A stretch of 64,000 nt of DNA from Nitrosopumilaceae archaeon (GTDB lineage Archaea > Thermoproteota > Nitrososphaeria > Nitrososphaerales > Nitrosopumilaceae), in assembly GCA_965207375.1 (NCBI GenBank), contig OZ242274.1:1728001-1792000 (forward strand), written 5' to 3'. Shown here piece after piece: positions 12,058 through 42,981 of the stretch. Both the position numbers and the translations under genes were made by a program. A model generated the notes under the pieces. The model ran no database searches, was not told the DNA's origin, and saw nothing but the letters and a program-made list of their open reading frames with translations. How positions within the stretch are numbered: the first letter of the stretch is position 1; the number at the start of each line of letters is the position of its first letter.

Positions 12058-12202
12058 TGAACACATGGTAACCACCCCGGCGCAGTACTAGTGGTGGATC
12101 GACCACTGATAATGTGTGGGCTATGCGCCCTGATAGATGTGTGCAGCTTCCGATCCGTCAACAAATCAGTAAGGAGGTGAAAAAAGGATGAAAACATACA
12201 TT
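12058..12202 (+). mobile_element. IS110 left-end remnant (partial non-coding end, SD GGAGGTGA, first codons MKTYI), truncated by a MITE
   Basis: 12130-12186 resembles 25713-25766 of the IS110 at 25.6 kb. 12058-12104 recurs inverted at 27380-27425. Confidence 0.65.
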
Positions 12203-24797: not shown

Positions 24798-25466
24798 TCA
24801 GCTTGCACTGCTGTATTGCCACCAGCCGGACAGTATGTACGGGGACGTACCTATATCAAAGTTGTCCGAGCCAGATACTGTCTCTCTTTGTTGCCCTTCG
24901 TAGTTAATCGATACGGAGTGGATGTCGTACGGGAACAAGCAGTAGTAGTTGAATGCGGACTCTCCCTCCCATTCAACAAACACCTTACCGATGTAGTCGC
25001 TAGTGTCGGATTCCACTATCCATTCGTCAGTCCATAACCCGCACCACTGCGTCTCCCTGTCGTACAGGTCAGTTGCCGTGGTGCCTTGATCCGATGCGTA
25101 TTTGCTGATGAAGTTTGGTGGATCCTGTAGGTGACTCATGGTACCTGCTTCATTAAGAGTGGATGCGAACCTGTTGTTTATGCCCTTGCCGTCAGACACC
25201 AGCGTGTAGGTGCCGTCACCGTTGAGGTAGAAATTTAACTCCGCCATAGATGACTCGCCGTCTACAGTACTGGTGATTGTAGAGTGATACCAGCCAGAAG
25301 TCGACTGGATAGTGTTGAACGCATACGTGCCTCCGTTACCTTTGACCGTGTATGTGCCCTTGTCGGCTAGGTTGTTGAGGTTATACACGATATGGTCGTC
25401 GTATATTACCTTTGGGTTGTCGTCAGTAGCGGATACCACGCTTATGATTGCATTTCTTAATGTCAT
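24798..25466 (-). CDS. Hypothetical extracellular-type protein, possibly 5' truncated
   Basis: 222-aa Thr/Ser/Gly/Tyr-rich ORF; frame open about 25 codons upstream toward the MITE/IS110 boundary. Confidence 0.6.
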   Translation of the reverse strand: MTLRNAIISVVSATDDNPKVIYDDHIVYNLNNLADKGTYTVKGNGGTYAFNTIQSTSGWYHSTITSTVDGESSMAELNFYLNGDGTYTLVSDGKGINNRFASTLNEAGTMSHLQDPPNFISKYASDQGTTATDLYDRETQWCGLWTDEWIVESDTSDYIGKVFVEWEGESAFNYYCLFPYDIHSVSINYEGQQRETVSGSDNFDIGTSPYILSGWWQYSSAS

Positions 25467-25599
25467 TATTGAATGGATCGTTGTGGGATTAATAAAGTAT
25501 GGGGGTTTTTGGGTAGGTACATACTCAGGTCGCCTCTGATTCTATGATATAGTTTTTGAACATACATGATCACTTGTAAATTCTCCGGGGCCGTATGGA

Positions 25600-25740
25600 T
25601 AGTATGGACCGATCCCTTGATTTTCATGACACGCAGAGCCACGTGTTCCGACGAAGTCTTCTACATGAATGGGGCAATCCGAGCTGCGGTGAAAGTGACA
25701 CAGAAATGATGTCTGATAGATGAATGCAGCTTACGGTCTG
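25600..25740 (+). ncRNA. Putative bridge RNA (target loop about 25611-25679, donor loop 25682-25731)
   Basis: Loop segments ATTTTCA and TACATGA match the insertion site; AAGTGA and ATAGAT match the circle junction. Closing stems AGCTGC/GCAGCT and CAGA/TCTG. Confidence 0.7.
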
Positions 25741-25769
25741 AACAATAAAACAGGAGGTGAAAAAAGAAA

Positions 25770-26823
25770 ACGAGAAAACCAAAGTATATTGGAATAGACA
25801 TTGGCAAGAAGAAATGCTTTGTATGCATAAAGGATTATAGCGGTAAGATACTACGTGAAACATCATATTACAATACGGTATCAGGTGCAACAGAGTTTGT
25901 AAAATCTCTAAAGACAAAACATGTTGCAGTATGTGAATCCACAGGAAACATGTGGACAAAAACATTTGATGTGTTTGAAAAGTACGGCATCAAGATAATT
26001 CTGGCAAACCCGGTTCAAACCAAGGCAATTGCATCTGCACGATACCAAGACAGACAAAATGGATGCTCGAACCCTTGCAGACCTGCCGCGTGCAGATCTG
26101 GTAGCTCAGTGTCACGTACCCGACATGACGATACGTCAACAAAAGGAGGTACTGCGTCGCAGAATAGCACTGGTTCGAGAGCGAGTCGAGGTTTCAAATC
26201 GACTAACATCGTTGCTTGACAGGTATGATTTAGTGTTACCAGCAATAAAACTTTGCGCAAAAAAGAATCTAAAGAAACTAGAGTCTCAGACACTAGAGTC
26301 AGATTACGACCAAAAAATGATGGAACAATCCGTGCGACACATAAGATACCTGACAGATGAAATATCAGATATAGAAAATACCGTCGGAGACATTGCACGA
26401 CACAATCAATACGCAAGACTGATCATGAGTCTGACAGGCTTTGATGCGTTTGGTGCATTACTTGTAGCACTTGAGATAGATGACATTTCACGATTCCGTC
26501 ATCCATCAAAGATTGTATCATGGATGGGACTGTGTCCTACGGTATACCAGTCAGGCAACACAACACGACATGGTAAGATGCGCAGGGATGTAAACTCAAA
26601 TGTAAAGTGAATAATGACTCAGGCAGCAAAGACTGCATCACTTCATGATTCCAGGATGGAACAGATCTATGAAAACAGTCGCAAGTCACATCCGTACGGA
26701 ATAGTAGTATCCAAGGTTGCAAACAAACTTGGCAAGATAATCTGGTTCATGTTACGAGATGATCTGCCGTACAAGCAACGCAAGAATAAACTGTATACGA
26801 CAAAGCTTCTCAAGCTACATTAG
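25770..26823 (+). pseudogene. IS110 recombinase pseudogene (ACG at start position, frameshift near 26043, stop at 26608)
   Basis: YIGID, CESTG, KTDKMDA, GLCPTVYQSG and VANKL motifs across three ORF pieces. Confidence 0.88.
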
Positions 26824-27141
26824 GATGGTATCTGCAGGTGGTGACTCACCTCCTGCCCCGCCACCCACCCAATGATTGCATTAGGATTAGGATGAAACAC
26901 ACTAGCGGATACTAAGCTTGTACAAGGTGATACCATCAGAGTAGTCAGGCACGAACTCTTCCCTAATCTTTATCAATGCACAAATCAAGTCAAGATAGAC
27001 CGAAAGTATTAGGATAGTCCATCCTGCGGCCCCGGAAATTTATATAGATAAAAATTTCATATCTGAAAAATTTACGACCGAAGTTTGTACCATAGAACCT
27101 ACAAAAGAAATAATTTTATGTTAGTATGATAAATTAAAATC

Positions 27142-27273
27142 ATGGAAGAAAGCATGAATAAATCACACACATTCATCTCAAAAGAGAGTTATACTGAGGA
27201 GGAGATAAGCAAACTCATTGACAATCTGTTAAATAGACACTTCAAAGTATATGATCGTCTTGCGGAAATCTAA
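27142..27273 (+). CDS. Small putative antitoxin (43 aa)
   Basis: MEESMNKSHTFISKESYTEEEISKLIDNLLNRHFKVYDRLAEI; stop abuts the ATG of a Doc-like fragment. Confidence 0.5.
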   Translation: MEESMNKSHTFISKESYTEEEISKLIDNLLNRHFKVYDRLAEI

Positions 27274-27370
27274 ATGTTTTATCCAGATCTTCTACATGTT
27301 AAACAAATCATAGCGAAGATAAATAGACGCTATTGTATGGATATTGTGATAGTCAACAAAGGTCAATACC
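27274..27370 (+). pseudogene. Truncated Fic/Doc-like toxin N-terminus
   Basis: MFYPDLLHVKQIIAKINRRY...VNKGQ, then interrupted by IS110-end/MITE sequence. Confidence 0.4.
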
Positions 27371-27379
27371 CAGACAGGG

Positions 27380-27454
27380 GTCGATCCATCACTAGTACAG
27401 CGCCGGGGTGGTTATCATGTGTTCACAAATTAACTCCATTATGTGAACAAGTAC
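27380..27454 (-). mobile_element. IS110 left-end fragment joined to half of an IS66-type MITE
   Basis: 27380-27425 is an inverted copy of 12058-12104; 27426-27454 is a MITE arm ending GTGAACAAGTAC. Confidence 0.65.
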
Positions 27455-27490
27455 GATTCAACTATATACTGTAAAATTAGAAATTTTAGC

Positions 27491-27955
27491 ATGATTCGGG
27501 TGGGCATGATCCTAATAATTGGCGCAATAATAGCATCAATGGCAGTAGCGATGATGTTTTTCTTAGAATATCAACCAAATATTTTGGAGACAGGACTAGG
27601 AGAGCAAATTACAGTAGGACCTACAACATACACCTTGTCATATGAAGGAATAGAAAAAGGTAGTAAAGAAATAGAATCAGATAAAACATTTATCAAAATT
27701 GGAATTCTAGCAAAAGACTCAGATGGAGACACAGTAACTGCAGAAAAAAAGCAATTCATATTACTAGATAAAAACAATGTGCAAACCGAGCCAACACACG
27801 GAATATTTGTGGAAGGATCCCCACAGATTATAGCATATTTCCCATTAGAGGACAAAGCCCTAGACGAGGAATTTCAGTACAAGATAATGATTAGGCCCAC
27901 CAAAGAACAGGGCTCAACAGACTTGGCCTTTGTATGTATTACAAATTGCCAATAA
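27491..27955 (+). CDS. Membrane-anchored protein (DUF4352-like)
   Basis: N-terminal TM helix, GEQITVGPTTYTL, C-terminal CITNC; start moved to ATG 27491. Confidence 0.7.
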   Translation: MIRVGMILIIGAIIASMAVAMMFFLEYQPNILETGLGEQITVGPTTYTLSYEGIEKGSKEIESDKTFIKIGILAKDSDGDTVTAEKKQFILLDKNNVQTEPTHGIFVEGSPQIIAYFPLEDKALDEEFQYKIMIRPTKEQGSTDLAFVCITNCQ

Positions 27956-41545: not shown

Positions 41546-41684
41546 ATTCGTGATTACATTAGATGTGCTTGTTCACTTCATGTCTAATTTTTTAATCATT
41601 ACATCACCCTTTGGGCATAAATTAACTCCCATATGAAAAATCCCTTGGCTACGTGCCGGATCCTATACAGCGTGCATTTGCAGA

Positions 41685-42758
41685 TCAGGACATCTTTGCT
41701 AGGTCATCTAATCTATTATGTTTTCTCTGGGTCAGCTCACAATTCTGTGTTCTGTATTCTTCGTTGTTAGTCAGCATGTACCAAATTATCTCCAGCATGT
41801 GTCGCGCTACTGCAACCTTTGCCTTTTGTGCACCGTGTCTCTTTTTTATTCTCTCGTAGATTCTTTGCATTCTGGGATCATGCTGTATGGTTATTGTAGC
41901 TGCCTCAACTATGGCGTTTCTCATCCATACTGAACCCTCCTTTGTTATTCCTCCTCCTTTGTATGTGGATGCACTGTTACGGTGTGATGGTATTACGCCA
42001 CCTCCTGCAGCAAACTTTTCTGCAGTAGAATATCTTGTAATATCTACAAGCTCAGAAATTATTGTAAATGCTGTAATGTGTCTGATTCCTGGTATCGTCA
42101 TGAGCAGTTTTACTCTATCATCATCTTGTGCTATTTGTGCCATCTTTTGTTCTAGTTTGTTTACCTGTGCAATTGAAGTGTTTATGCATTCTAGATGTAT
42201 GTCCATTGACATGCGGTCTATTTCTGATATTGGCATACTTTCTAACCATTTCATTCCTTTTTTTGTAAACGCCCCATTGGTTGGGCACGTATAGTCATAT
42301 CTGGCAAGTATTGCATGGATTTTGTTTCTATGTCGTGCACCGTCTCGTTTGCATCCGCTTCTGGTTCTGACTAGATTCCTTAGATCTCTATAGTACTTGT
42401 TAGGTACAAAAGACTCGTATATCATGTCTGATTTTAATAAATCAGTTAGTATCTCAGAATCAAGCTTGTCGTCTTTTAGCTTGGCCTGTGCTATTATCTT
42501 CGTCTTTGCAGGATGTGCAAGTATTGTATCTATTCCCTCGTCTTCTAGCTTGTCATGTAATCTTATCCAATAGTTTGCAGTGGATTCACAGACTGCTCTT
42601 GCAGTGTCATTGTATGTTTCCTTTATGTGTTTGATAAAACCTGTTATGCCTTTTGTGTCGTTTGAAAATGTAATCTGTTCTAATTTCTTTTTGCTTTTAT
42701 CATTTTTTATGGTTGCAACACATTGTTTCTTGTGAACGTCTATTCCGATGTTGATGAT
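41685..42758 (-). CDS. IS110 DEDD recombinase
   Basis: IGIDVHK, CESTA, KDDKLDS, TIPGI, GVIPSHRNS, AKVAVARH. Likely starts at ATC after SD GGAGGTGA; the ORF-track ATG 42815 lies in the ncRNA. Confidence 0.92.
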   Translation of the reverse strand: MINIGIDVHKKQCVATIKNDKSKKKLEQITFSNDTKGITGFIKHIKETYNDTARAVCESTANYWIRLHDKLEDEGIDTILAHPAKTKIIAQAKLKDDKLDSEILTDLLKSDMIYESFVPNKYYRDLRNLVRTRSGCKRDGARHRNKIHAILARYDYTCPTNGAFTKKGMKWLESMPISEIDRMSMDIHLECINTSIAQVNKLEQKMAQIAQDDDRVKLLMTIPGIRHITAFTIISELVDITRYSTAEKFAAGGGVIPSHRNSASTYKGGGITKEGSVWMRNAIVEAATITIQHDPRMQRIYERIKKRHGAQKAKVAVARHMLEIIWYMLTNNEEYRTQNCELTQRKHNRLDDLAKMS

Positions 42759-42794
42759 ATCATCACCTCCTTTTTGATCAAAATTTGTGGACTT

Positions 42795-42930
42795 GACCTT
42801 GCGGAATACTCCCATTCACCATTCATCAAAAACGTGGTATTTTGTTGTCCGCTTACTGTGAGCTAGTCTATTACTCACCTTCATACGAGGTATTGTTAAT
42901 TCAGCCCTCAGATCCAATATAATCAGTACG
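42795..42930 (-). ncRNA. Putative bridge RNA (target loop 42856-42911, donor loop 42801-42852)
   Basis: RNA reads CUGAGGGCUG-AAUUAAC-AAU-ACCU..AGGU-GA-GUAAUAGA-C-UAGCUCACAG. Both loop segments match the insertion site AATTAAC-TC-TATTAC. Confidence 0.78.
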
Positions 42931-42981
42931 TAGCCGTAGGAGAAAAATTTTTCATATAACGTCTATTACGTAAACAAGCAC

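Follow-up and report, generated by a model that had tools for sequence, protein, structure and literature searches.

A decayed IS110-family element occupies a palindromic repeat

The DNA analyzed is a stretch of 64,000 nucleotides (the window, whose numbering is used for all positions below) from a genome that is archaeal, its single SSU rRNA locus scoring 1444.9 bits with the archaeal model versus 1086.2 bits with the bacterial one. The features at the locus are the following:

25513..25566 (+): left half of the target repeat, a MITE/REP-like palindrome of ~93 bp, ending in ...ATACA, which is the left target (28 uninterrupted copies)
25567..25568 (+): predicted left core copy, TG (TG at the junctions of relatives and at uninterrupted sites in G061, a genome of the same genus)
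25569..27048 (+): IS110-family element, 1480 bp excluding the core copies (ends from the homology of relatives and the repeat consensus)
25578..25593 (+): left subterminal inverted repeat, AAATTCTCCGGGGCCG (read from the sequence; partner at 27027-27041)
25602..25744 (+): very probable bridge/seek RNA gene (covariance model R1, 77.2 bits, E=7.9e-24; helices covary in relatives)
25770..26823 (+): recombinase pseudogene with DEDD/RuvC-like and Transposase_20 domains (Pfam; NCBIfam NF033542)
26824..27026 (+): right non-coding region, with a degenerate version of a block kept in relatives
27027..27041 (+): right subterminal inverted repeat, CGGCCCCGGAAATTT (read from the sequence)
27049..27050 (+): predicted right core copy, TA here where TG is expected (3 of 32 right junctions lack TG, this one included)
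27051..27093 (+): right half of the target repeat, starting with AAAATTT, which is the right target (repeat alignment)

The element has a recombinase gene between non-coding ends of ~200 nt (left) and 225 nt (right). Its subterminal inverted repeats match in 15 bases, with one additional C in the left copy, and relatives carry repeats of 10-12 bp equally far from their ends. An earlier note on this DNA had described an IS110-family element whose recombinase is a pseudogene, and the protein searches bore this out: both Pfam domains of the family are present, in pieces, with PF01548 (E=6.8e-11 and 1e-10 on two pieces) and PF02371 (E=1.5e-13) divided between two frames. We located three lesions: positions 25770-72 read ACG where relatives and the intact paralogue have an ATG start; one surplus base lies near 26042, where two frames overlap (26029-54) and contigs of related elements from public runs are one base shorter (at 26042/26043); and positions 26611-13 read TGA where relatives and the paralogue encode Trp. 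The NF033542 model ('IS110 family RNA-guided transposase') gave 129 bits on the 193-aa middle piece, which falls short of the 140 required of a whole protein, the gene being in pieces, and 224 bits on an intact paralogue that also aligns with the IS621 and ISCro4 transposases, its only relatives in the PDB. The pseudogene pieces read YIGID, CESTGN, KTDKMDA, and YQSGN, candidates for the catalytic D, E, D, D, and Ser motifs at the places that align with IS621 in an intact paralogue.

Four intact paralogues in the genome share ~42-46% amino-acid identity with the recombinase (G000:C1:13.6k, 610k, 877k, and 1246k). A search for close intact relatives of the 193-aa piece returned none above 37% identity in genome contigs and none above 39% in metagenome contigs, and a DNA search of 201 genomes of the family returned the RNA scaffold only, besides the host genome's own partial copy. 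The nearest named proteins found were haloarchaeal 'IS110 family transposases' with ~33% identity to the paralogue. With three recombinase lesions, a right core that reads TA, and a genome holding no intact close relative, the window copy is a fossil. In runs X4-X6 and a second X1 contig set, relatives were mostly 90-97% alike over the compared pieces (window 25700-27050), and the element's lineage may be intact elsewhere.

The target repeat and the crossover dinucleotide

The element sits at the centre of the ~93-bp repeat and both flanks derive from one repeat. Taken as one joined sequence, the flanks match the genome at 36 further places, and an alignment across the insertion point took in 28 uninterrupted copies; their consensus reads ACATACATGAAAATTT, with the centre …TTTTTGAACATACATGAAAATTTCATGCCTG…. 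The empty site had previously been reconstructed as CATACAT-GA-TAAAAAT, which is 3 letters longer than all 28 uninterrupted copies. Because the core is read as TG (see below), the empty site is ACATACA-TG-AAAATTT, identical to the repeat consensus. Contigs of runs X1 and X4-X6 were also compared with positions 25000-27600 in a check for an empty allele; the joints that they contain are other repeat copies, and none of these contigs ran across both unique flanks.

The repeat itself has 16-nt terminal inverted repeats (GTACAnACTCAGGTCG…), its arm motifs occur 76 and 32 times in the genome, and its centre is targeted by the element's lineage in both orientations. The 11-mer TACATGAAAAT occurs 21 times in the genome versus 8.6 times expected from composition, and three of these occurrences lie within the repeat.

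For the comparison with relatives, 100 regions were fetched, five of which were left out as they are shortened by contig ends; the remaining 95 and five host-genome loci made up the 100 sources given to R1, all of which were aligned, and right ends were found for 32 of the 100 relatives. At the left junction, 99 of 100 relatives carry TG ahead of the conserved end, a count made with a left-junction finder that rewarded TG. At right junctions, which were read without preference, TG follows in 29 of 32, with GG, AG, and TA (the window copy) once each, and TG also follows in 3/3 of the other right-end remnants of the element's lineage in the genome. The G061 genome contains at least 8 copies of a sister element, and the uninterrupted site TAGCCTGT-TG-CATAAC was found there 23 times at ≤1 mismatch (control: 0), making this a clean case in which the crossover dinucleotide can be fixed from uninterrupted sites in the same genome.

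These counts bear directly on the earlier reading, in which a bridge RNA works with a GA core, the empty site given above, a circle junction TATATA-GA-TCACTT, and AAGTGA (25693-98) as the left-end guide. That reading has real points in its favour at this locus: GA is present at both ends of the window copy (25568-69 and 27047-48), the right junction reads TA so that the TG duplication is imperfect here, and AAGTGA is a perfect 6-nt complement of TCACTT. Across relatives, however, GA is common to both ends in 18 of 32 elements versus 29 of 32 for TG, and the search for a GA-type uninterrupted site in G061 gave 0 matches. Together with the length of its empty site and the misfit of its guide described below, this makes the GA version highly improbable. 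Judged by these sequence comparisons, the core is TG at 25567-68 with a mutated copy at 27049-50, and the circle junction would read TATAGA-TG-ATCACT. Two other parses, AT, and GA with a right end ...ATAGAT, give the same empty site and were rejected on the junctions of the family; xT/AT holds in 2 of 32 junctions.

The left end encodes a two-loop RNA whose helices covary

We built the covariance model R1 from 20 aligned relatives, excluding the window copy as well as L036 (degenerate), L048 (motif only), L011 (a paralogue with one base different), and L058 (a cut duplicate). Its match at 25602-25744 agrees with the earlier claim of a two-loop RNA in the non-coding left end, and places the following parts:

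25605-11 / 25734-40 (+): helix P1 (family model)
25614-16 / 25671-73 (+): helix P2 (family model)
from 25628 (+): helix P3 (family model; 25-nt insertion in the window copy)
25681-87 / 25726-32 (+): helix P4 (family model)
25697-700 / 25710-13 (+): helix P5 (family model)
25617..25627 (+): 5' strand of the target loop, U-UGAUUUU-CA-U (covaries with the right flank)
25659..25670 (+): 3' strand of the target loop, UUC-UACA-UG-AAU (covaries with the left flank)
25688..25696 (+): 5' strand of the donor loop, GGUGAA-AG-U (covaries with the left end)
25714..25725 (+): 3' strand of the donor loop, U-GAUAGA-UG-AAU (tracks the right end)

In an ordinary MAFFT alignment the five helices pair in 93.3% of cells, versus 82.9±0.9 when shuffled, and controls in which the helices were slid pair at only 31-47%. 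Both sides have changed in 14 of 28 pairs, and the covariation score was matched by 0/500 shuffles. Run unaided, RNAalifold recovered 26 of the 28 pairs and left the four guide strands unpaired. The strand of the RNA is fixed because the first P4 pair is G.U in 20/20 sequences. The family fold is feasible in the window copy (-31.2 kcal/mol, MFE -35.6), and the window left end folded alone was no better than shuffles (z=0.74; 156 of 200 shuffles equal it); the structure, with both loops, is supported only by the comparison of relatives and not by the single-sequence prediction suggested earlier. Both stems proposed earlier are spelled at 25682-87/25726-31 (AGCTGC/GCAGCT) and 25701-04/25712-15 (CAGA/TCTG). 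The former does close the second loop, as GAGCUGC/GCAGCUU, and the latter is replaced in the family register by GACA/UGUC (25697-700/25710-13). Rfam 15 gave no match at its gathering score, the best being SNORD49 with 16.2 bits (37 needed), which lies inside the recombinase gene.

The same left-end scaffold is carried by the four intact paralogues, with different loop sequences, and was found by DNA search in 22 of 201 genomes of the family, the host genome counted. R1 matches eight places in the host genome and ~165 places in 29 of 151 sampled genomes of the family, a tally that counts the host genome and, for this purpose alone, the genome G077, which is flagged as unpublished; outside the family, a match was found in 1 of 131 genomes of a phylum sample. 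As the mechanism is already known, what this adds is an archaeal family of bridge RNAs with good support. R1 also matched weakly (12.3 bits, E=0.0055 in 6.7 kb) on the Haloarcula plasmid NZ_CP142029.1 (L328:1051-1173), directly upstream of an IS110 transposase gene ~33% identical to the paralogue, and the upstream-RNA layout may extend to haloarchaea.

Four loop strands match the flanks and the element ends

Both flanks and both element ends are matched by loop strands, which covary with them across relatives, as would be expected from the earlier proposal that all four guide segments are readable. The 5' strand of the target loop has the format U, 7 variable bases, 2 bases, U, and the 3' strands of both loops read U, 6 variable bases, UG, 3 bases. 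In the target loop, GAUUUU (25619-24) pairs with AAAATT of the right flank (5 Watson-Crick pairs and 1 G.U), the following CA, found at the core position in 67 of 100 relatives, pairs with the core TG, and the last U stands opposite the final A of the right end. On its 3' strand, UACA and UG have the same sense as the left flank and the core, and the next bases, AA, are in most relatives those with which the left end begins. In the donor loop, GGUGA is complementary to TCACT, bases 2-6 of the left end (4 Watson-Crick pairs and 1 G.U, 5/6 bases in the window copy), where A25692 opposite T25570 is a compensatory change, the pair being U:A in most relatives. On the 3' strand of the donor loop, AUAGA and UG have the same sense as right-end positions 27044-48 and the core, and the variants ATAGA, ATAGG, ATGGA, and ATGGG track the right end. 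For handshake-like bases after the donor-loop core, neither the right flank nor the left end showed a clear relation.

Permutation figures (2000 each, permuted between distinct guides) are indicative and overstate independence, the relatives being kin and the right-side samples small: pairing of the target-loop 5' strand with the right flank was 3.44/7 versus 1.80±0.32 permuted (reached by 0; 15 distinct guides from 32 elements, several single insertions fitting poorly); identity of the target-loop 3' strand to the left flank was 4.38/7 versus 1.75±0.15 (reached by 0; 54 distinct guides, 98 insertions); pairing of the donor-loop 5' strand with the first six left-end bases was 4.30/6 versus 3.06±0.19 (reached by 0; at offset 0 only); and agreement of the donor-loop 3' strand with the right end was 4.86/6 versus 4.0±0.29 (reached by 8; six distinct types). 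The match to the left flank is carried by positions -1 to -4, with identities of 0.92, 0.90, 0.90, and 0.79. The comparison of guides and flanks across intact relatives that had been suggested as a check came out positive, with more distant members of the family and not with close ones.

We then considered the window copy alone by shuffling positions 25600-25745 with dinucleotides preserved and counting matches anywhere, in loops or not. All four matches were reached together in 1 of 20,000 shuffles and their sum in 3, so that the combination exceeds chance. Taken singly, the longest exact words (8, 8, 8, and 6 nt) were reached in 476, 276, 334, and 6850 of 20,000 shuffles, and the 6-nt word AAGTGA alone is weak.

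The four words quoted earlier all stand at the places given for them: ATTTTCA at 25620-26, TACATGA at 25662-68, AAGTGA at 25693-98, and ATAGAT at 25716-21. ATTTTCA, in which the right-target guide ends and the core complement follows, keeps its role as a right-flank guide; the 6/7 match claimed for it gives way to a perfect complement of TGAAAAT, because the empty site is ACATACA-TG-AAAATTT. TACATGA comprises the left-target guide, the core, and one further base, and ATAGAT runs from the left-donor guide into the first base of the core. AAGTGA, by contrast, cannot be kept as the left-end guide: it is out of register and overlaps both the conserved U and stem P5, and the family register places GGUGAA at 25688-93.

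These results also weigh against a reading of the left-end structure as a leader that regulates the recombinase, or as protein-binding DNA sites, with the flank matches being by-products of the end repeats and no guide present. The region does lie directly 5' of the ribosome-binding site and start codon, as such a reading would have it. A leader, however, needs no tracking of the flanks, whereas the loop strands change with the flanks in elements at different targets; the compensatory changes and the strand-specific G.U pair indicate an RNA fold; and the same architecture was found experimentally to be a guide in IS621 and ISEc11, as described in PMC11208160 and PMC11187229. We regard the leader or DNA-site reading as very improbable.

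A guide RNA could, in typical IS1111 style, instead lie in the long right non-coding end (26824-27048), with the left-end RNA otherwise employed. The IS1111-type subterminal repeats, the 225 nt of non-coding DNA on the right, and the block that relatives keep there would suit such an arrangement, which we nevertheless consider scarcely credible: each of the four guide relations points to the left-end RNA, the right end folds no better than shuffles (z=0.14), and target or donor words were not seen there by eye.

The right ends of relatives were inspected in their own right (22 distinct). Lying 70-90 nt before the right end, the kept block reads …GCTAGCGTTAGC-TATAAA(G/T)…, with CTAGGCACGGATCAGAAG ~20 nt further on; the TATAAA/TTTAAA word is clear by eye in ~12 of the 22, and in the window the block is degenerate at ~26890-26960. 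It may resemble an outward-directed archaeal TATA-type promoter that would enter the bridge-RNA gene in the circular form.

A probable bridge RNA for an archaeal IS110-family element

Positions 25602-25744 are very probably the bridge-RNA (seekRNA) gene of an archaeal insertion element from the IS110 family, for which we have the fold, the four sequence relations, the covariation across relatives, and the TG duplication. From these we infer that the RNA is expressed, bound by the recombinase, and used in strand exchange; a search for RNA runs that cover the locus gave none. The transcript would be ~143 nt long, made from the same strand as the recombinase gene, with an outer stem around two internal-loop modules. 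The first loop would read the target, its 5' strand complementing the top strand of TG and the right flank (AAAAT) and its 3' strand, equal in sense to the left flank and TG (TACA-TG), pairing with the bottom strand. The second loop would read the joined element ends, its 5' strand pairing with the start of the left end and its 3' strand having the sense of the right end and TG. By analogy with IS621 and ISEc11, a recombinase tetramer with the RNA would exchange strands at the TG common to the circular donor and the target, the donor junction being …TATAGA-TG-ATCACT… and the target …ATACA-TG-AAAAT…, the centre of the repeated palindrome.

Comparison with described IS110 and IS1111 systems

RNA-guided recombination by IS110 and IS1111 elements has been known since 2024 (PMC11208160, PMC11208158, PMC11187229). 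The element resembles IS621, as described in PMC11208160 and PMC11208158, in that its left end carries the RNA, ahead of a DEDD/Ser recombinase, that the RNA has two internal loops, a target loop followed by a donor loop, that each loop reads one strand per side of a 2-nt core, and that the target is a repeated palindrome; the bases past the element's 3' guide match partner DNA, resembling the handshake guides of IS621. It differs from IS621 in that, by the same two reports, the guide order is inverted, the core is TG versus CT, and subterminal inverted repeats of 10-15 bp in the element's family stand against 2-3 bp. The host here, unlike that of IS621, is an archaeon, and the intact paralogue has weak similarity to the IS621 protein (E=5e-14).

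With the IS1111 seekRNAs of ISEc11, ISPa11, and ISKpn4 in PMC11187229 the element shares the order of guides, the top-strand complement lying 5' of the bottom-strand match, and subterminal inverted repeats of IS1111-like length; ISPa11, according to that report, also targets REP-type repeats. In contrast, the RNA gene is upstream of the recombinase here and downstream in the IS1111 seekRNA elements described there, and the element extends 9 and 7 nt past its inverted repeats (core uncounted) versus 7 and 3 bp for IS1111 by the count of PMC11187229. Guide order is what separates IS1111-type from IS110-type seekRNAs in the account of Siddiquee et al. 2024 (PMC11187229), in which subterminal repeats mark IS1111 and the RNA is usually downstream of the gene, with a few exceptions. 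Those named, ISMtsp17, ISHvo10, and ISAcp5, are given there as IS1111-type or diverged elements with upstream or two-sided long non-coding regions, and the element, with ~200 nt of non-coding DNA upstream and 225 nt downstream, is likened to them by description.

With respect to class, the element belongs to IS110 in the broad sense (DEDD RNA-guided transposases) by its PF01548 and PF02371 domains, and it has what characterizes a bridge RNA or seekRNA: a structured RNA with two internal loops that adjoins the recombinase gene, and strands that match the target and the joined ends, overlap at the core, and covary. The upstream position of the guide RNA (RNA 25602-25744; gene from ~25770) is that of the narrow IS110 group, whose guide order and absent or very short subterminal repeats are not found here, the order being reversed and the repeats 15 nt. 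The IS1111 group is matched in its subterminal repeats of ~11-13 bp (15 nt with one indel here; 10-12 nt in relatives) and in the top-strand complement lying 5' of the bottom-strand match; a downstream guide RNA is lacking, all guide relations mapping to the left end. As far as its sequence tells, the layout is a hybrid, with the RNA upstream as in the IS110 group and with IS1111-like guide order and subterminal repeats. Since the clade combines IS1111 order and repeats with an upstream RNA, it departs from each group in one defining feature.

Whether the archaeal clade as a whole is a natural hybrid of both groups, with IS1111-type ends and guide polarity and an RNA gene upstream of the recombinase, we can propose only tentatively, giving it somewhat less than an even chance. 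If it is, more than one switch of ends would have occurred, in the RNA module or in the element's polarity with respect to the core. The clade may also transcribe its guide RNA from a TATA-type promoter in the right end, which would reach the RNA gene in the circular form only, and R1 would then define an undescribed bridge-RNA family mostly confined to one archaeal family. A literature search on IS110 in this archaeal lineage and on bridge RNAs of archaea and IS1111 showed nothing on the clade among the records listed; the supplementary tables of PMC11208160 and PMC11187229 may list such elements. A layout that fits neither published group definition fully bears on the movement of the RNA module between element ends, and the RNA family, which displays natural reprogramming of both target guides, is useful comparative material.

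Remnants and other elements in the genome

Among the right-end remnants of the element's lineage, one fragment lies at C1:1860677-1861250 (95% identity to the element) and another at C1:985072-985253. At G000:C1:1598372-1598455, a 22-nt right-end remnant, consisting of the inverted repeat and the terminal bases, lies in a repeat centre with TG on both sides; it is also present in contigs of runs X4 and X6 (loose ends at window 25568). A TG is found at window 27025-26, and a deletion from the left core to there would yield the 22-nt form. It may be an aberrant recombinase product or result from a marked copy of the repeat having spread.

A left-end fragment 82% identical to the element lies at G000:C1:727737-727818, preceded by TG and a different flank (GTAAGTGTTAACC). 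Its right-target guide reads UGAAACU versus UGAUUUU, and it ends before the left-target guide; a natural retargeting within the lineage is a possible explanation.

Two copies of the paralogue's bridge RNA with internal deletions were seen at window 12092-12161 (+) and at G000:C1:555748-555817 (R1, 34.6 bits); in these the stretch between the hairpins is gone and the 5' strand of the target loop is fused to the 3' strand of the donor loop. A 61-nt left-end fragment of the paralogous family (92% identity) lies at window 27366-27426 (-), ~320 nt to the right of the element.

Finally, the '41.6-kb element' at window ~41640-42960 (-) belongs to another IS110 lineage, present three times in the genome. 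The guide order and core described earlier as common to both elements are not borne out: R1 gave no match to the 41.6-kb element, and its ends (ATGAAAAATTTTTC… and …GGGAGTTAA) differ from those of the element at 25569-27048. The 41.6-kb element and one R1-family paralogue have a repeat in common in their right flanks.
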